A DNA stretch of 24,608 nt. Source: a virus. Its lineage: Duplodnaviria > Caudoviricetes. The translations under genes were made by a program, and so were the position numbers. The notes beneath the pieces are model-generated. The model made no database searches. It was not told the DNA's origin and saw only the letters and a program-made list of their open reading frames with translations. Positions 2 to 24,521 of the stretch are shown piece after piece. The stretch is from the IMG/VR virus record IMGVR_UViG_3300020042_003394, positions 1-24,608 of that record; one strand, written 5' to 3'. Numbering within the stretch: the stretch's first letter is position 1; each line of letters begins with the position of its first letter.

Positions 2-2212
2 ATCATGCCATCCTCCTGTATAAGTTTGGAAGTCCTGAATAGATACGTTATTATAGTGCAGTGTATCCATTGTGATATTACCCTCTATAGCGTAATCATA
101 AAACTCCTTATTAGTAGCAGAGATGAACCTCTTATCATCTGCATTAATAGCTATTGCTTTTACAAGTCCTAGAGTTAAGAATTTCTGCAGGTTAGATATC
201 ATATAATTATCAAAGATCATCCAATCTACCACAGTCCAGTGATCAAATAAAAGCCTACCGTACTCATCTAATGGGTTACGCTGAGCATTGAAGTACTGAT
301 TGAACTCTATTTCATGCCTTCTCCTATCATGGCTACCACCTGCCCCACCTATCACATAGTTAGTAGTGATGACTATCTTAGGGCTTCTCTCAAATGGGAT
401 AAAGATCTCATCCTTATTTTTTCTGTTTACTGTAATACCTTCTGAGATCAGTGAGAATAATTGCTCAAAGTCAAAGTTCTTTTTTACATCATCAAAGGCC
501 AGGATCTGACTATCTAAGTTTACTCGCTGATAAACAAAGTCTGACTTTTGTGGGTTGAATGCTTTACCATCTATTTTTACTATATTTCTAATCTTACCTA
601 TGGCAGTTAATACTAAGCTCTTACCACTTCCTCCATTAGGATTATCATCTATCTCCTGATCATTAAATATTATTGCTTTTTGGTCAGTCTTATCCTTATA
701 GGTATGCAGTAGATATCCTAGGGTAGTCTCTAATGCATTTACCCTCTGCTCATCATCAGCTGATACCTTGGACACAAAGCTCTTAAAATCATTTTCAATA
801 GTAGGAGTAGGTTTGTAGTCCCTATCAATTATCTGCCTATCCCATATATAGCCATCTATATCAATGTAGGGCACAATGTCAATTTTGTTCTTAGTAATCT
901 TAACTACTCCATTACGATAAGGGATGAAGCTCACATCCTTAGTATCCTGCAGCATCATTAAGCCGATAGGCTCTAGCATAGATAAGTGACCATCTGTAAA
1001 GAGGTAGGGTGACTTACTGCAGTAGTTCCAAACTTCAACCTGCTTTTGCTTCATCAAGTAAGCTAGTACAAAGTCCTTTACCTGGTCCACTGAGGATAAA
1101 TTAACTTTGTTCTCTATCACCCTCACAAAGGTGGGTTTTTCTGATCTCTCAGGGTAATACTTATTAAACCCATATTTGTACAGGAAATCTCTATACTTCA
1201 TAGGATCTACACTAACCCCCTTCTTATCACTAAAAGTCCAAAACACATCCTCACTATTAGCTACATCCTTCTTAACATCCTCTACCACATCAGGCTTAAT
1301 GTCTAACTGCTTAGAGATATCACCAGGGGAGATGCCTTCCTTTAGTTTAGACTTAACCTTTATAATTGTTTCTTTATCCTCAAAGTATTTAGTAGACTTG
1401 TTAGCACTTTTGTAAGCAGATCCTACAGCTGTATTAATTTCTATTTGTGTAAAGTCCTTAGCACTATATTGGTGCAGGTACAGCTTAGCAGTATTCTCAC
1501 TTATGCCATACTCAGCAAAACAGCAGGCCACCTTAAACACCCAAATGTTTCTACCATTGGAAACTTCTCCATGGTTAAACTTCATTATATTCTCAATGAT
1601 ATTAGCTTCATTAGTCATTGGTAGCACTGGCACCCTTTCAAATGAGCTATGGCCCTTCTCCTCTTCTATAAGATTAAATACCTCAGCATCTATATTGATA
1701 TAGGCAGTAGGATCATAAGACTCAAAGCACACCCTGCTAACATTACAGCTACTAGCATCAAAGTAATCACTATCAATAAACTCCTGAAAAGCCTTAAAGC
1801 GTCTCTTATGCGTGAATTTATCTGATGCTGGTATCTTTATCACACATTTTAGCCCTTTACCTGATGGTGATATGAATATCATAAACACATTAGGGCACTC
1901 CATTAGTCTAGCCTTCTCAGCTTTCATTACCTTACTGCTAGGGTAATCATCAAAATCTAATATACAAAGCCCTGAGTGCTCAATAAGGCCATTATCATTA
2001 CGTTCATTAAAGGTCCCATTAAACATAATAGCCCTGAGGCTGTTCTTTAGGCTGCTGTATGCAGGATCATCCTCCTCCATAGCTCTAAGAGCAGTTATTT
2101 TATCAATAAGCTCAGGGTAGCCTTCCTTTATCCTATTGTAAACATCCACCACATCTTGTGTGTAGGGAGTTTCTTTAGAATTGAATAGGCTTTTAAATAC
2201 AGATATCTTCAT
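2..2212 (-). CDS. Primase-helicase (BT4734/VirE-N-like primase domain plus SF3-type P-loop helicase), 3'-truncated by the window edge
   Basis: Absent from the ORF track; translated by hand from the ATG at 2212 (MKISVFKSLFNSKETPY...). Motifs HSGLCILDFDD and FISPSGKGLK (primase), NPNGGSGKS (Walker A), ILAFDD (Walker B), IVITTN (motif C). The frame appears open to the window start. Confidence 0.85.
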   Translation of the reverse strand, partial: MKISVFKSLFNSKETPYTQDVVDVYNRIKEGYPELIDKITALRAMEEDDPAYSSLKNSLRAIMFNGTFNERNDNGLIEHSGLCILDFDDYPSSKVMKAEKARLMECPNVFMIFISPSGKGLKCVIKIPASDKFTHKRRFKAFQEFIDSDYFDASSCNVSRVCFESYDPTAYINIDAEVFNLIEEEKGHSSFERVPVLPMTNEANIIENIMKFNHGEVSNGRNIWVFKVACCFAEYGISENTAKLYLHQYSAKDFTQIEINTAVGSAYKSANKSTKYFEDKETIIKVKSKLKEGISPGDISKQLDIKPDVVEDVKKDVANSEDVFWTFSDKKGVSVDPMKYRDFLYKYGFNKYYPERSEKPTFVRVIENKVNLSSVDQVKDFVLAYLMKQKQVEVWNYCSKSPYLFTDGHLSMLEPIGLMMLQDTKDVSFIPYRNGVVKITKNKIDIVPYIDIDGYIWDRQIIDRDYKPTPTIENDFKSFVSKVSADDEQRVNALETTLGYLLHTYKDKTDQKAIIFNDQEIDDNPNGGSGKSLVLTAIGKIRNIVKIDGKAFNPQKSDFVYQRVNLDSQILAFDDVKKNFDFEQLFSLISEGITVNRKNKDEIFIPFERSPKIVITTNYVIGGAGGSHDRRRHEIEFNQYFNAQRNPLDEYGRLLFDHWTVVDWMIFDNYMISNLQKFLTLGLVKAIAINADDKRFISATNKEFYDYAIEGNITMDTLHYNNVSIQDFQTYTGGWHD

Positions 2213-2230
2213 ATATGGTTAGTTGGGGTG

Positions 2231-2435: not shown

Positions 2436-2792
2436 TTAGTAATAATTTCTTTTAATCTGCTCCTTAATCCTATCCAATTTCTCCAGGTCATTGCACTCTA
2501 GTACCTTAACTCTCAATGGCTTATAGTATCTCGGTGATGCAAACAGCCCACGCAGCTCTAGTGTGTAGTACAGATATAACGGATCCTTTACTTTGTACCA
2601 AGCGTCATGGTTAGCTATGCCATGGATGACAGTAGAATGGTTCTGATGGAACAGTGCACCTATCTCTGTTAGTGGCATCCCTTGGTTTCTGAGCAGTGCA
2701 TAGAGGTAGTACCTTTTGTAAGTGTACTGTCTTAACCTGCTCTTTTTTGTAAGCTCATGCTTCACAATATACTCCTGTATCTGATCAATCAT
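2436..2792 (-). CDS. DnaA C-terminal (domain IV)-like HTH DNA-binding protein
   Basis: RYYLYALLRNQGMPLTEIGALFHQNHSTVIHG resembles the DnaA domain IV signature (SLxxIGxxFxxRDHTTVxH). Confidence 0.7.
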   Translation of the reverse strand: MIDQIQEYIVKHELTKKSRLRQYTYKRYYLYALLRNQGMPLTEIGALFHQNHSTVIHGIANHDAWYKVKDPLYLYYTLELRGLFASPRYYKPLRVKVLECNDLEKLDRIKEQIKRNYY

Positions 2793-3853
2793 AATGGTAA
2801 TTTTTTAATTATTTTTTCTAATACTCTAACTACTATACTATTGCCTGCTTGCTTGTATGCTTGGCTATCAGATACAGGCCAAGTAAAAGTATTAGGAAAA
2901 TCCATTAAACGGAAGCATTCTCTAGGGGTTAATCGTCTTATTCCATAAGTATTATTATTTTGTAAATATTCATAATTATCACCGTCATCACAAGTATCAC
3001 AAAAATTATATTTAAAGTTACCACAAGTGTTAAAACTAAATTTACATAATTCTATTTTTATTGTATTATCAGTAGGACATAATGCTGAATTTGCTCTTAG
3101 GCAATTAGCTATATCATTTTCATTTTTAGGTTCAAAAATAAATCCTGTTTTCTTTTCGTTATGATTTTTATTATGAACCATAAATCCATTTATAAGAGTT
3201 TCACTTAAAAAATACTTATCATCTATACTATCCTCTAGCACATCCTTAAGTCTTTTTGTTAAATGCTCCTCTACTGGCCACCTAAAAGTGTTATCTTGAT
3301 CATCTCTAATACCTATTAAAAATACTCTTTCTCTATTCTGAGGGACTCCGTGCTGTTTTGCATTTAATACTTTCCAATACAAATGATAAGACACACTATC
3401 ATCATAAGGAAATATAACAGGGTTACCATTAACTGATTTACCACCTAGCATATTAACCCATTCACTAAATGTCTTACCACCATCATCTGAAAGCAAGCCT
3501 TTTACATTCTCGAATATAAAAAAACGAGGTTTATTAACTTGGATAAATTCTAAGCTATTAAAAAATAAAACACCTCTTTTATCATCCTTTCCTAATCTAT
3601 TACCTGCCATACTAAATGATTGACAAGGTGGCGAAGTCATATAGATATCTAAACTCTCTGATGGTATCTCTCTATCATATACATTTAATGGGTAGTATTT
3701 AGGCTCTCCATAATTATGTATAAATGTTTGCCTTGCGTACTTATCCATATCACAGGCATATACTTCCTCATAATCTATACCTAATCTAGTTAGTGCTTGA
3801 TTAAATGCTCCTACTCCTGAGAAGTCACTTCCTACTTTAATTGTTTTTTTCAT
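2789..3853 (-). CDS. DNA (cytosine-5)-methyltransferase
   Basis: Motifs I (FSGVG), IV (PPCQSFS), VI (ENV), VIII (QNRERVF), IX (RRLTPRECFRLMDF) and X (QAGNS). Start placed at MKKTIK (3853); 3862 is an alternative. Confidence 0.95.
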   Translation of the reverse strand: MKKTIKVGSDFSGVGAFNQALTRLGIDYEEVYACDMDKYARQTFIHNYGEPKYYPLNVYDREIPSESLDIYMTSPPCQSFSMAGNRLGKDDKRGVLFFNSLEFIQVNKPRFFIFENVKGLLSDDGGKTFSEWVNMLGGKSVNGNPVIFPYDDSVSYHLYWKVLNAKQHGVPQNRERVFLIGIRDDQDNTFRWPVEEHLTKRLKDVLEDSIDDKYFLSETLINGFMVHNKNHNEKKTGFIFEPKNENDIANCLRANSALCPTDNTIKIELCKFSFNTCGNFKYNFCDTCDDGDNYEYLQNNNTYGIRRLTPRECFRLMDFPNTFTWPVSDSQAYKQAGNSIVVRVLEKIIKKLPL

Positions 3854-3995
3854 ACTGCTCAACTTTTAGTATTAGTTTTGGCCACATAGCCATTAGCATT
3901 ATTGCATGATCTCTATCCAGGGCTTCTAAGATCCTGATGCCTATCCTCTTTTTCCCATTTTCAAAATAGTTGTAGGTTACTTTATAGCGTTTCAT
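3837..3995 (-). CDS. Small hypothetical early protein (~52 aa)
   Basis: MKRYKVTY...; overlaps both neighbours. Start moved from the ORF-track position 4049. Confidence 0.65.
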   Translation of the reverse strand: MKRYKVTYNYFENGKKRIGIRILEALDRDHAIMLMAMWPKLILKVEQYEKNN

Positions 3996-4644: not shown

Positions 4645-4734
4645 TTAAAGATTAGAGATAAAACAAATTAAATAAATTCCTACCCAAAGGGCTGTAAAGG
4701 CAATGATGCCCTCTAGTATCTCAGAAGCTCTCAT
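4645..4734 (-). CDS. 29-aa single-TM peptide
   Basis: Hand-translated MRASEILEGIIAFTALWVGIYLICFISNL*. ATGA overlap with the upstream ORF; stop 3 nt before the next ATG. Confidence 0.6.
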   Translation of the reverse strand: MRASEILEGIIAFTALWVGIYLICFISNL

Positions 4735-4910
4735 TTTCTTTTAATTTTATAAAGGTCATCAATAGCTTTGATTTCTGCTTGTGTAAGTTGTGATCTTTCC
4801 ATAGCTAGAGCTAATTGGCAGACACTATCCCACTCATCTACACTGAAGGCTTTGTTGCTGTTAATTTGCTGGAGTAGGTACTCAACAGCTGTTAATTTTT
4901 GATCATTCAT
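4731..4910 (-). CDS. 59-aa first gene of the early operon
   Basis: Hand-translated MNDQKLTAVEYLLQQINSNKAFSVDEWDSVCQLALAMERSQ...KRK*. Below the ORF-track cutoff; directly follows the promoter. Confidence 0.7.
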   Translation of the reverse strand: MNDQKLTAVEYLLQQINSNKAFSVDEWDSVCQLALAMERSQLTQAEIKAIDDLYKIKRK

Positions 4911-4938
4911 AATTGGTTAGTTTAATAAGTTAGTGAAG

Positions 4939-4972
4939 CAAATATACGGAGTTATTTCATATATGTTCACAA
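4939..4972 (-). promoter_or_regulatory. Bacteroidota primary-sigma promoter for the early operon
   Basis: TATATTTG (-7 element, 4939-4946) with a TTG 23 nt upstream. Confidence 0.75.
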
Positions 4973-4989
4973 GTTTACAAAAGTTTTCG

Positions 4990-5012
4990 TTATCAATAAT
5001 CATTCTAAATAA
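4990..5012. promoter_or_regulatory. Fur/PerR-box-like imperfect palindrome
   Basis: TTATCAATAATCATTCTAAATAA contains ATAATCATT, the core of the Fur box. Confidence 0.45.
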
Positions 5013-5015
5013 GGA

Positions 5016-5185
5016 ATGTGTACATATAAGCCTATCATGTATAGAAAATGCAATAATTTGAACATGAAAAATAAGGGCATAGCCTTAATGTATACATGAG
5101 AAGTAAGGGGATAACCTTAAATAGGTAATATGTTAGCTATATCTTACATTATGGTAGAATTATAGCTATTATGTTGGTTATAACC
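5016..5185. repeat. Cluster of operator-like palindromes
   Basis: TAAGG-N6-CCTTA twice (5072-5087, 5104-5119), ATGTATACAT (5088-5097), ATGTTAGCTATATCTTACAT (5130-5149), GGTTATAACC (5176-5185), ATGTGTACATAT (5016-5027). Confidence 0.6.
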
Positions 5186-5200
5186 GTCACAAATGTTGGC

Positions 5201-5245
5201 AAAAAAATAGCCCCCCTGCCAAACTAACCAAAGATACAGAGGGGC
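5201..5245 (-). terminator. Intrinsic terminator ending the late operon and the candidate sRNA
   Basis: GCCCCUCUG/CAGGGGGGC stem followed by UAUUUUUUU. Confidence 0.85.
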
Positions 5246-5270
5246 CTGGTCTCTAATACGAGACCTGATG
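5201..5270 (-). ncRNA. Candidate antisense small RNA (two hairpins, seed in the terminator loop)
   Basis: Hairpin GGUCUC/GAGACC (5248-5265), then a 9-bp stem with an 18-nt loop and a U7 tail. Loop UUGGUUAGUUU is complementary to the leaders at 4913-4923 and 2216-2224. Confidence 0.6.
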
Positions 5271-5278
5271 CAAACTTA
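5271..5278 (-). promoter_or_regulatory. -7 element TAAGTTTG for the candidate sRNA
   Basis: Exact TAnnTTTG match overlapping the TAA stop of the phosphoesterase gene; no clear -33 TTG. Confidence 0.55.
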
Positions 5279-6151
5279 CAAATTAAATTTATGACTATCT
5301 ATATATTTAGTAGTTTTTCTATCTCCTGTAGTTTCTCTGACACATTTTATAGTAAGTATCCTGCCACCTAATGGCTTAATGGGAGCTCCTCGCTCTACGT
5401 GCCACCCTTGTGAACCATCTCCGTACTCTTCCTTATAGGTGCCTGTAAGCATGAGGTGTAGATGTTTTTGCCTAAGAGCGTAGCCTGATTGTGGATGGCT
5501 TTCTACTGTATCTCTGACATCATTTCTGCAGCTGTTCTCATGGATGTGGCCCATCATAAACACATCAAAGTTCTCATAAGTCTCTAATGCCCTGGTTAAA
5601 TTGATAGCACCTTTGGTAACTATACCACCACCACCTGATCCATGGAAGTATTTGATTTTAGTAGTAAAGCAGGAAGTGCTTCGGCCTCCAGGTGATTGCT
5701 TAATGATTAGCCACCCACCATAACCACCTACCTGCACATTAGATTGTGCTTTAAAGTTTAGGATGTCTACAAATCTCTGCAGTATGTCAGTTTCTTGCCA
5801 TTTAATTATAGCAGTCTCATGGTTACCGTATCCTATTAGCTTAATGATATGTGCATAGGGTAGAAACCACTCTGCTGCTGTATTAATTATACTATCTAAG
5901 TACATAGCATTGTTATGCTCAGGCCTAATGTCAGACTTGTTTCTCCTATTATCGCCTCTCCCCTGCATGCAGCAAAATAGGTCCCCATTTATCATTACAG
6001 GTATGTTTTCAGCTAGGCAATAGTCCAGGTGCCTCTTCAGCATCTCCCTATTACAGTGAGGGTTATCCCAGTGTATATCAGATAGCATAGCTATCCTTAC
6101 ATCAGAACCTTCTAGTAATAGCTCATGCACATTCTTTGAATGTCTTATCAT
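5276..6151 (-). CDS. Calcineurin-like metallophosphoesterase
   Basis: Motifs SDIH, GDLF, GNHE, FHG and GHIH. Confidence 0.9.
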   Translation of the reverse strand: MIRHSKNVHELLLEGSDVRIAMLSDIHWDNPHCNREMLKRHLDYCLAENIPVMINGDLFCCMQGRGDNRRNKSDIRPEHNNAMYLDSIINTAAEWFLPYAHIIKLIGYGNHETAIIKWQETDILQRFVDILNFKAQSNVQVGGYGGWLIIKQSPGGRSTSCFTTKIKYFHGSGGGGIVTKGAINLTRALETYENFDVFMMGHIHENSCRNDVRDTVESHPQSGYALRQKHLHLMLTGTYKEEYGDGSQGWHVERGAPIKPLGGRILTIKCVRETTGDRKTTKYIDSHKFNL

Positions 6152-14726: not shown

Positions 14727-16921
14727 AGTTCTGAGTTTTTATTAATACGATTGATTTTGTCCTGGACTGATGTAACCTGTGACTCACTTACTATAGCTGT
14801 CACTGTCATAGATGTACTACCTGTAGATGTACCTCCTGCACTCATTGTGCCACCTGTATTAGCTGAGCCAAATAGCTGAGCTGCTTGAGGCACTACCTGA
14901 GAAGTGGATGAGCTTCCACCACCACCTGTATCACCACCATCACCACCACCACCTGCTGAAGGAGTACTACTAGGTGATGATAATATCTGCTTAGCCTTAG
15001 CCACGTTAGTAGCAATCTGTATGATCCCTGCTGTGAATTGTGCTATACCTGCACCACCTGCTGTAACAGCATTGGCAGGGTTAAGGTTGGAAGCTGCTAC
15101 TAAAGCTGAGATAGCCTTAGCAGTATCAATACCTATTTGTATCAATGCACTGGCCTTGTTAAACTTCTCTAGTTTCTTCTGATCCTTTATAAGCATACCA
15201 CCTAAGTTAGTAAGCCCATCCACTGTATCCTTAGCAAATGTTAATTTAGCATTCATAGCTTTTTGGCCATCATCAAACTCCTTTTGCTTAACTGCAGTAT
15301 CCATAGCTGTTATCTTTTCATCATACTGCTTTTTGAGTAGTGCTAGTGTTTCAAAGTTTGCATTAGCCATCTCTTGGTCCTTAAGATACTTTGCCTCTAG
15401 AGCTGACCTTTCTATTACATCTGCTGACTGCAAACTAGCTAACAGATCTGTCTGTGCTTTTTGTTTGTCTAGTAGCTTCTTATCTGCCTCTGCTTTTTCT
15501 AGTGCATCATATTGGGCTGCTAGCGTTTTCTTTTGTTCAGCTGTTAGGGTGAGATCAGCAATGGCTGCAGCTCGTAGCTTATCATACTTATCCTTTTGTA
15601 TAAACAATTCCTTTTCAGTTCCCTCAGCCATTAGCTGTAGGTTTAGAGCTGCGATAGTTTCATTTCCTTTCTTAAGATTAGTCTCTTCTATCGTTCTCTT
15701 ATCTGTGGCAATTTTGTCTAGCTCAATCTTCTGCTGTGTAATAGCTTGCTCTCTAAATTTAGCTTTCTCCTCTTTAGTCTTTTTATCATCATTGACCAAA
15801 TCAGCTAATACCCTCTTGTACTTTTCATTGATTATAGCTATCTCCCTTTCTGTTTGTTCCTTTATCTGAGATAACTCAAAGTCTTTCAATGCTCTTGAAG
15901 CTGTCAATCTATTAGCTCTATACTCCTTTGCTTTGGCTGCTGCTTCTTTAGCTGCTGCTGCTGCATCCGTTGCAGCCTTAGCCTCATCTGCTGTAACTTC
16001 TTTAGCAAAATTGGCCCTGATGATTTCACGATCATTAACTCCTTTTGATATTAAGTCATTCTCAGCTTTTATATCATCTTTTAACTTTTGCTTTTTCTTT
16101 TTTGCATCCTCATCAGTCTGATGGGCAATAGCTTTAAGTGTTGCATAGTTATTTCTTACTCTTTGCTGAGCTTCTTTCTGAGCAGTATAGCTTTTTTCTA
16201 TTTCTAAGTTTACAGTAGTTTTACCTGCTATCTTAGCCATAGCTATCTCATGATCGTAAGACTTACCCATATCTTCTGCTCTATCCTTACTGGCAGCACT
16301 TGCTTTCTCCATCGCAGCTGTTACCTTCTCGGCATTTTCATCAGCAGCAAACGAGGTAATACCCATCCAATCAGTTAACATCTTAAAGCCATCTATCAGA
16401 GCTCGTATAGGGATCATTAAGACATCTAGCACCTTTTGGAGTACTCCGAATTTATTTAACACTAAAGCAACAGCAGCCACAATAGCTACTATTACTACTG
16501 TGAGTAGGAAAATTGGGTTCATCAATATCTGTAGTCCTAGCTTCATGAAGGCCATCCCTAAATTCTTAACTGTACCACCTAGTCCTTTAAGTGCCTTGCT
16601 TATGTCATCCTTGCCTAAGCTACCCATAGTAGAAACTAAAAGCTCAGACTTCTTGTTAGCCTCCTCAAAATCTAGCGACATTAACGATCTCTTAATACCA
16701 CCTAAGCCATTAGAGACTGCTTCGAATTTAGATCCTGTAGCAAACATTTTTACCTGCTCATTAGCATCCTTAATCTTATCAGATAGTACACCTGCTGCCT
16801 TAGATAACCTAGCAATCTCTGCAGGATCTGTAGCGTTAATTAATTCACCTTTTAACATTTTTAGCTCGGCCTTGACAGCTGCTAGTCCTCCTATTTTGAG
16901 AGGTATCTCTACTTCATTCAT
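14723..16921 (-). CDS. Tape measure protein
   Basis: 732 aa, Ala/Lys-rich helical sequence, hydrophobic MNPIFLLTVVIVAIVAAV segment, Gly/Ser-rich C-terminus. Confidence 0.85.
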   Translation of the reverse strand: MNEVEIPLKIGGLAAVKAELKMLKGELINATDPAEIARLSKAAGVLSDKIKDANEQVKMFATGSKFEAVSNGLGGIKRSLMSLDFEEANKKSELLVSTMGSLGKDDISKALKGLGGTVKNLGMAFMKLGLQILMNPIFLLTVVIVAIVAAVALVLNKFGVLQKVLDVLMIPIRALIDGFKMLTDWMGITSFAADENAEKVTAAMEKASAASKDRAEDMGKSYDHEIAMAKIAGKTTVNLEIEKSYTAQKEAQQRVRNNYATLKAIAHQTDEDAKKKKQKLKDDIKAENDLISKGVNDREIIRANFAKEVTADEAKAATDAAAAAKEAAAKAKEYRANRLTASRALKDFELSQIKEQTEREIAIINEKYKRVLADLVNDDKKTKEEKAKFREQAITQQKIELDKIATDKRTIEETNLKKGNETIAALNLQLMAEGTEKELFIQKDKYDKLRAAAIADLTLTAEQKKTLAAQYDALEKAEADKKLLDKQKAQTDLLASLQSADVIERSALEAKYLKDQEMANANFETLALLKKQYDEKITAMDTAVKQKEFDDGQKAMNAKLTFAKDTVDGLTNLGGMLIKDQKKLEKFNKASALIQIGIDTAKAISALVAASNLNPANAVTAGGAGIAQFTAGIIQIATNVAKAKQILSSPSSTPSAGGGGDGGDTGGGGSSSTSQVVPQAAQLFGSANTGGTMSAGGTSTGSTSMTVTAIVSESQVTSVQDKINRINKNSEL

Positions 16922-23675: not shown

Positions 23676-23823
23676 ACTCGTCTAAAATTATAAAACTGTA
23701 ATAAAATAAAACCCATAACCCTGCTGCTTTACTAGCCCACTCATACTCCAATCTAAATAAAGCATAACCAGTGAACATGCCACAGAATAATGCTAAAGTA
23801 CTAATAAATCGGCTCACTTTCAT
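23659..23823 (-). CDS. Small two-TM membrane protein (54 aa)
   Basis: Start moved to MKVSRF, which abuts the late motif; two hydrophobic segments. Confidence 0.65.
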   Translation of the reverse strand: MKVSRFISTLALFCGMFTGYALFRLEYEWASKAAGLWVLFYYSFIILDEYENKE

Positions 23824-24334
23824 ACCTATATTGTAATTCATTCAAATTTTGTTTTATCTCCTTGATCAGATAGTAGGCTGATGTAGTTGTTATCCCAAAG
23901 TATTGGGCCATGCTTTTAGCTGTGATATATCCCCTATCAATGTATGCCTCATAAACTATCTTCTGCACCTTATCTGTTATCTCATTCCTGTAGATCTCTA
24001 TTAGTGCCTTATTAAAAGAATAGATCCTATCCTCTTTGAGCTTGTAGTATAGATCATCATTATCTTCAGGCTCATTCAATGGGTGTTCAATGGCTGTGAT
24101 CCTATCATCCTTATTACTCTTCGAGCAGGACCATAGCACCTGATACTTAATTGTGTTTAGCAGATAGCTCTTCACCTTACCAGGATCCCCATCTATATTG
24201 ATAACGTGTAGGTAGGAGTTATTAATGACTGTGTCAGCGTCTATGTAGCTACCCATCTTTTTTAGAAAGTAAGTAGTATAGGCTCTCACCTCAGCATAGT
24301 TGCTACTAATGTAGTTGTCTAAGGCTCTTCTCAT
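23801..24334 (-). CDS. ECF sigma-factor-like late transcription regulator
   Basis: Region-2-like DADTVINNSYL...KSYLLNTIKY and region-4 HTH TAKSMAQYFGITTTSAYYLIKEIK; about 177 aa from MRRALD. Confidence 0.7.
   Translation of the reverse strand: MRRALDNYISSNYAEVRAYTTYFLKKMGSYIDADTVINNSYLHVINIDGDPGKVKSYLLNTIKYQVLWSCSKSNKDDRITAIEHPLNEPEDNDDLYYKLKEDRIYSFNKALIEIYRNEITDKVQKIVYEAYIDRGYITAKSMAQYFGITTTSAYYLIKEIKQNLNELQYRYESEPIY
23824..23853 (-). promoter_or_regulatory. Late promoter motif AACAAA-N15-AATATAGGT inside the 3' end of the sigma-like gene
   Basis: Abuts the ATG at 23823. Confidence 0.75.
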
Positions 24335-24521
24335 ACCATTGCATAAAGTCCTTTGACCATATCCTCCTCCTCGTAGATGCACAGAAGCACTCTCTCGGTT
24401 GTCTACCCTCATACTTCTCTCGAATCTTATAAAGTTTTATGCAGCTATACTTAGAGTACCTTGTGCTATCAGGCATCTTCTCTATTGCATCAATCAGATC
24501 TATCTCAGCTTGTTCAAACAT
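24306..24521 (-). CDS. Small hypothetical protein with a CxC motif
   Basis: ORF overlapping both neighbours. Confidence 0.65.
   Translation of the reverse strand: MFEQAEIDLIDAIEKMPDSTRYSKYSCIKLYKIREKYEGRQPRECFCASTRRRIWSKDFMQWYEKSLRQLH

Follow-up and report, generated by a model that had tools for sequence, protein, structure and literature searches.

A Candidate Small RNA of Bacteroidota Phages Whose Seed Is Complementary to the Leaders of Early Genes

In a group of phages predicted to infect Bacteroidota, a compact unit at the end of the late genes contains a short seed that is complementary to a tag located just before the start codons of early genes, and this match between seed and tag is real and conserved. 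The unit probably encodes a trans-acting small RNA which would keep the first gene in each early operon from being translated and so act as a delayed brake. It was analyzed in a 24.6-kb fragment of a virus record (the whole stretch of DNA, hereafter the window) and in relatives of this virus.

Genomic Setting and Predicted Host

Nearly all genes of the window lie on the minus strand: those for terminase, portal, capsid, holin, amidase and metallophosphoesterase are followed by small early genes, a DNA methyltransferase gene, and a primase-type gene. The genes referred to most often below are:

5276..6151, minus strand, metallophosphoesterase, final gene of the late block and anchor for finding relatives
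4731..4910, minus strand, first early gene, hypothetical protein of 59 aa, ATG at 4910
2..2212, minus strand, primase-type replication gene, truncated by the window edge

The 59-aa protein belongs to no PHROG or Pfam family, and its matches are unnamed viral clusters only (0.86). The sequence-only reading had named the third gene a primase-helicase. The first half of this name is supported by a BT4734-like N-terminal domain and a weak PriCT_1 match, whereas no helicase domain was detected by Pfam or PHROGs.

The host is probably a member of Bacteroidota, based on the presence of TAnnTTTG boxes, the promoter consensus of this phylum (PMC6847099, PMC9723704), and on the binning of related sequences: three of the five matches of the phosphoesterase in genome collections are found in bins labelled Flavobacteriaceae or Flavobacterium, as binned contigs that do not imply integration. 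Because GenBank phages contain no close relative of this anchor protein (two matches, both below 35% identity), no cultured member of the group was found.

Several other features of the window were observed. An ORF of 203 aa at the end of the early region (23801-24412, minus strand) has sigma-70 region 2/4 as its nearest named Atlas clusters (0.96) and a weak Pfam HTH_11 match, and its homolog in the complete relative G007 is located downstream of a tagged ERF gene; it is possible that this sigma-like protein is a late activator. The motif ATGACG(C) occurs approximately six times at 2250-2435, just upstream of the primase promoter, with one copy inverted and the other five on the plus strand. 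The adjoining ORF of 118 aa (2436-2792) matches the DnaA C-terminal HTH domain (E = 1.3e-8), and the repeats together with this ORF may form a replication origin with its own binding protein. The C5-type DNA methyltransferase of the early block (2789-3862, minus strand, PHROG 116) is shared by some relatives but not all.

Anatomy of the Unit

The unit comprises 78 bases of the minus strand (5278-5201), with the following elements in order of transcription:

5271..5278, minus strand, -7 promoter box TAAGTTTG, host sigma-A type by comparison with the TAnnTTTG consensus
5248..5265, minus strand, 5′ hairpin of 6 bp with a 6-nt loop, kept in relatives with variable sequence
5209..5246, minus strand, terminator stem of 11 bp (arms 5246-5236 with 5219-5209) around a loop of 16-18 nt
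5221..5231, minus strand, seed UUGGUUAGUUU inside an invariant 13-nt loop core, computed opening cost 1.6 kcal/mol
5201..5207, minus strand, U7 tract and predicted 3′ end, kept as a T-run in relatives

Such a unit, with its -7 element, 6-bp hairpin and large-looped terminator, had been proposed from the sequence, and all of its coordinates were confirmed; the loop counts 18 nt as proposed, or 16 nt in the MFE structure, in which U5236-G5219 closes. The TAA within TAAGTTTG is the stop codon of the phosphoesterase gene, so that the box overlaps the gene end. Relatives such as L013 and L016 have a separate TATATTTG box downstream of that stop.

The predicted fold of the unit has an energy of -33.4 kcal/mol (z = -4.4), and none of 200 shuffled sequences was equally stable. 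Given the spacing of 4-5 nt between -7 box and start reported for F. johnsoniae (PMC6847099), an RNA of 62-66 nt starting near position 5266 is predicted. The unit contains no ORF, and the sequence features of its own promoter and intrinsic terminator are present and conserved, their activity being predicted. An automated terminator scan missed the hairpin because it allowed loops of at most 8 nt. Rfam (release 15) gave no match at the gathering threshold in the window, and the best of seven chance-level matches in the region 4800-5500 had E = 0.94; no C4-type match was found in the window or in this region. An explanation by a mini-ORF on the plus strand, following the mirrored leader, was rejected, since its ATG is found in some relatives only (the window has ATA) and no plus-strand terminator is present.

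Complementarity to Early Leaders in the Window

Two tags in the window are complementary to the seed:

4913..4923, minus strand, target 1, at -13..-3 of the first early gene (ATG 4910), 11-nt pairing, loop duplex -15.2 kcal/mol
2216..2224, minus strand, target 2, at -12..-4 of the primase gene (ATG 2212), 9-nt pairing, loop duplex -13.6 kcal/mol

Both pairings had been described in the sequence-only reading, the second one with 2 nt more after a bulge, and were reproduced at these positions. The two targets had also been placed in short leaders after a host-type promoter element, and this holds: target 1 lies within the 28 nt that follow a TATATTTG box at 4946-4939, and target 2 within the 18 nt that follow a TATATTTA box at 2238-2231 (one mismatch).

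The motif AAACTAACCAA has exactly two copies in the window (minus strand, 4913-4923; plus strand, 5221-5231) and AACTAACC has three, the third being located at 2217-2224 before the primase ATG. These counts by themselves are not significant (14/100 and 5/100 shuffles, respectively). When the loop was compared with all 33 gene starts, the two targets were the best matches, with 11 nt for the first early gene and 9 nt for the primase gene, followed by 7 nt for the next start. In a test devised after the match had been seen, shuffled loops reached 11 nt against these starts in 19 of 3000 cases, and the combination of 11 and 9 nt in 7 of the 3000. A chance origin of the loop match is removed by the conservation of the unit in relatives.

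Cofolding, a method unable to model the pairing of a strand within a hairpin loop, gave no heterodimer, and whole-genome duplex energies for two relatives (G001 and G004) did not single out the targets among the matches listed. A helix of 11-12 bp within a loop of 16-18 nt is strained, which counts against the pairing model.

Conservation in the Close Lineage

From 301 relatives of the phosphoesterase, 80 loci were retained, 30 of which share at least 81% protein identity (lineage A). The 13-nt loop core is unchanged in all 29 close relatives with DNA over the unit (the 30th locus ends short). It is invariant in 27 distinct units, whereas the four-fold sites of the neighboring gene average only 62% identity to the window. 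The 5′ hairpin varies in both sequence and length, and still folds in full-length units. In the terminator stem, 99.3% of cells are paired (8 pairs, 17 sequences); two pairs are altered on both sides and 12 changes are one-sided C-G/U-G replacements, counts which are inflated by relatedness. The C-G/U-G changes fit folding of the minus strand.

The hairpin is located directly 3′ of the last late gene and the unit is missing from some relatives, both of which would suit a mere terminator of the late operon, built from an inverted early leader and carrying a functionless match. We consider this highly improbable, as the loop remains invariant while the adjoining hairpin and the four-fold sites change, and as it tracks changes of the leader across lineages (see below).

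The motif ACTAACCA is present 8-11 nt before an early ATG in 27 of the 30 close loci; of the other three, one ends right after the motif and two lack it in the short stretch examined. A search for the tag before start codons was extended to four genomes that are at least 90% complete. All seven copies of the 11-mer outside the unit were found in leaders, beginning at positions -10 to -13 relative to a gene start, and a third target was added by this search: an ERF family gene of the complete relatives, which belongs to a part of the genome missing from the window. The tag is present in the leaders of three promoter-proximal genes and therefore marks the first gene of three early operons. The window and four near-complete relatives each have the seed unit itself as a single copy.

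The longest complementary run to the seed averages 10.1 nt in the three promoter-proximal leaders of lineage A (n = 46; 85% with at least 9 nt), versus 5.7 nt at other early starts (n = 275) and 5.4 nt at late starts (n = 220). The CAU/UAU variation within this lineage was considered as an anti-AUG wobble and rejected, since the stem pair alone accounts for it. A scan of viral contigs with a 15-nt pattern yielded mostly chance matches in coding DNA, and a hairpin context was found in members of lineage A only. In one locus (L116:2005-2085), the same loop is accompanied by a second copy of the seed in place of the 5′ hairpin, and four tagged genes are present within 7 kb.

Seeds and Leaders in Other Lineages

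Two further scans resulted in 218 oriented loci (repeats counted). One of ten seed types was found right after the phosphoesterase stop in 174 of them, and 44 are without any. Each seed type is flanked by a -7-like box and an intrinsic terminator, and the terminator sequences differ. The location of the seed in the terminator loop is specific to lineage A; elsewhere, the seed mostly lies in single-stranded sequence preceding an ordinary terminator, and a complement of AUG is usually part of it. The seed types correspond to lineages in a quick tree built from 80 proteins, with D and F as sisters, so the collection represents a handful of independent switches and not hundreds.

Promoter-proximal leaders contain AACTAACCA in lineage A, AAAACAAC in D, ACACGCTAA or ACACAC in F, and ATCAAAACTAA in H. 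A cross matrix of seeds and leaders, built from 122 non-redundant loci (159 before removal of repeats; four, with no terminator in the stretch examined, were left out), is block-diagonal; the automatic 5′ boundary shortened some lineage-A units in this matrix, their seeds being retained. Covariation of loop and leader in related phages, suggested earlier as a test of the pairing, was observed: the true pairing of seeds and leaders ranks 1/120 across five lineages. This ranking includes a 173-aa gene of lineage I and a 281-aa gene of lineage H that was picked by position, not homology. Since the lineage I gene is no ERF and was picked after the match had been seen, the ranking with the first gene alone is the cleaner test; it gave 1/120 by run length and 2/120 by energy. 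With D4 added, the true pairing ranks 1 or 2 of 720. Mirror and tag thus differ together by lineage, and therefore one RNA likely brakes the early operons.

Promoter-proximal leaders also exceed other starts in D1 (8.0 nt versus 5.8 nt for early and 5.2 nt for late starts), D3, F1, F2 and H, whereas such an excess is barely seen in D4 (n = 3) and is absent in E (n = 2). The seed of lineage I, a lineage found after the cross matrix was made, matches its own AAAAACAAAA leaders. For lineage J, no clear target was found in the DNA examined, and for lineage B there is no leader match of at least 10 nt in a 94%-complete genome, an A-tract excepted.

Lineage B differs in other respects. Its unit (L031-L037 and L045), located 15-100 nt after the phosphoesterase, is about 85 nt long and contains three separate anti-AUG modules; these phages are larger, up to 64 kb, and their early leaders end in AACCAAA-ATG. 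In L207 (G003), the lineage-B terminator hairpin recurs elsewhere in the same contig, as a copy with 19 identical nt on the minus strand at offset 17305.

The three anti-AUG modules of lineage B, which come without clear targets of its own, raise the question of whether these RNAs are broad anti-start-site RNAs acting mostly on host mRNAs. A/C-rich leaders are general in Bacteroidota (PMC6847099). In a related version, pairing would protect or activate the phage leaders. Both versions together appear very unlikely to us: the seeds follow the promoter-proximal leaders of the phage itself and not its other starts, and pairing over -13..-3, often with the AUG, should block initiation.

Four near-complete genomes without a unit at the phosphoesterase were read as a whole. 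Two of them have a unit before the sigma-like gene (L345:17410-17480, plus strand, in G013; L347, minus strand, offset 15410-15480, in G014), with the same layout of promoter, seed and terminator, and its best matches among the 45-47 starts are early leaders of the respective genome. The other two yielded no unit, and thus the unit is not universal among the relatives. A similar U/G-rich promoter-terminator unit was also observed after the phosphoesterase in a contig binned with Flavobacterium sp. (L338:8873-8950).

Transcript and Wobble Tests

No discrete RNA was seen in one RNA run (X1), whose assembled contigs are unable to show transcript ends. The share of words in this run was 0.06, and contigs of relatives had a depth of 3-4 and continued beyond the U tract by about 60 nt, without any peak. 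Seed-target mismatches have no G-U bias: three are compatible with wobble, eight are of the opposite type, and 22 are transversions.

The wobble test thus gave RNA pairing no favor. In a reading based on protein, the tag could be a binding site for a phage or host protein, either an operator or a site at the RNA level as for RegA/RegB of T4, and the copy in the unit could be a DNA site or decoy with no RNA-RNA pairing involved. The tags lie just downstream of -7 boxes, a frequent position of operators, and small HTH proteins are encoded in the window. On the other hand, the unit copy is always antisense, on the strand that carries the promoter and the U tract, most seed types mirror the AUG as well, which a DNA site would not need, and the flanking stems evolve as RNA. 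On balance, a protein site seems quite unlikely as the explanation.

Proposed Mechanism and Physiological Role

Initiation in Bacteroidota relies on unpaired, A-rich bases in the region from -13 to -3 (PMC6847099), and FopS-10 blocks translation by pairing in this same region (PMC11697453). The tagged leaders here are about 13-24 nt long and predicted to be unfolded, and the seed covers this region; translational repression of the first cistron is therefore proposed. The RNA would be transcribed from the -7 box after the phosphoesterase, and its seed in the terminator loop would pair in the cell with the tags before early ATGs. Covering -13..-3, and often the AUG in other seed types, it would block initiation, and through polar effects the downstream genes of each early operon would likely be silenced too. 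Because the RNA and its targets use the same host-type promoter, a stable RNA would build up while unstable mRNAs turn over, so that early and replication genes would be braked with a delay. Late transcripts, which would terminate at the hairpin of the unit as well, may add to the dose of seed.

The physiological role of such an RNA might be shut-off, exclusion or persistence. The sequence-only reading had envisaged a multi-target RNA switch for early-to-late shut-off, copy control or immunity. Its core, a stand-alone RNA unit whose exposed seed mirrors early leaders, agrees with the lack of an Rfam match, with the further targets in full genomes and with the matching of seeds and leaders across lineages. 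In the complete relative G007, 18 early proteins were scanned by Pfam, with no match to an integrase, repressor or antirepressor, and the remaining ORFs, as listed, were read as late-gene homologs. Since no integrase or repressor is seen in this relative, lysogenic immunity of the P1/P4 type would be the least supported of the three roles.

A different main job is conceivable for the same RNA and the same pairing, namely silencing of a related superinfecting phage or quiescence in a starved host, with the seeds defining exclusion groups. Seeds and tags diverge jointly between lineages, as does c4 between P1 and P7 (PMC12197685), and owing to the host-type promoter no phage protein would be needed to keep the RNA on. 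The lack of a recognizable integrase or repressor in G007 argues against this, as does the invariance of the seed across a lineage of many distinct genomes, which makes diversification slow for an exclusion race. We assign exclusion or persistence a minor share of the probability and retain the delayed brake as the preferred reading.

Relationship to Known Systems

The conserved seed is complementary to start regions at distant loci, as in trans-encoded base-pairing small RNAs. By analogy, the proposed RNA would work like FopS/GibS of Bacteroides thetaiotaomicron (PMC11697453, PMC7366714). However, FopS/GibS RNAs are chromosomal and multicopy (14 FopS) and target glycan-use operons of the host, whereas the unit here is phage-encoded and single copy, and is predicted to target the phage's own early operons, which share a lineage-specific tag. 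FopS/GibS RNAs are also tied to RbpB. In terms of layout, not sequence, their seed is in a single-stranded 5′ part, and that of lineage A is in the terminator loop.

Phage antisense RNAs are the other point of comparison. The P4 CI RNA is of the same general type as c4. The sar RNA and OOP have long complementarity at the same locus, not a short tag shared by distant loci. Similar to the RNA proposed here, sar (P22) and OOP (lambda), of 68-77 nt, repress a phage gene by pairing, but each has one target tied to lysis-lysogeny control (PMC12197685). The c4 RNA of P1/P7 (PMC12197685) is likewise phage-encoded and trans-acting near the ribosome-binding site of the phage's own mRNA, its pairing bases are likely in loops, like the predicted seed of lineage A with its low opening cost, and its specificity differs between related phages, as do the seeds here. 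However, c4 acts on a single antirepressor operon in a temperate enterobacterial phage, whereas the predicted targets here are the first genes of three early operons (the 59-aa hypothetical gene, the primase and the ERF gene), and the unit has no Rfam match. The proposed RNA would work like FopS/GibS and P1 c4 and appears to belong to neither.

For Bacteroidota phages, no description of such an RNA was found in the full-text literature, a scope which mostly lies outside subscription papers. Six motifs had no match in the supplement files searched, which are part of the whole, of a collection of 10,000 viral candidate RNAs (PMC10690425).

Implications

These results address how small Bacteroidota phages switch off early genes without an obvious repressor. 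A more speculative and rather doubtful extension is that repressor-less phages of this kind have an RNA-only regulon, in which each early operon bears a private lineage tag in its first leader and one mirror RNA is encoded, and that this code of tag and mirror times shut-off and excludes kin sharing the tag. If the proposed brake is correct, an RNA of 65 bases that acts on three tagged operons through one 11-base seed would be a simple answer to early shut-off. It would also add a class of a phage's own genes to the reach of multi-target small-RNA control, illustrate the action of such RNAs where Shine-Dalgarno pairing is absent, and provide natural orthogonal seed/tag pairs for gene control in Bacteroidota.
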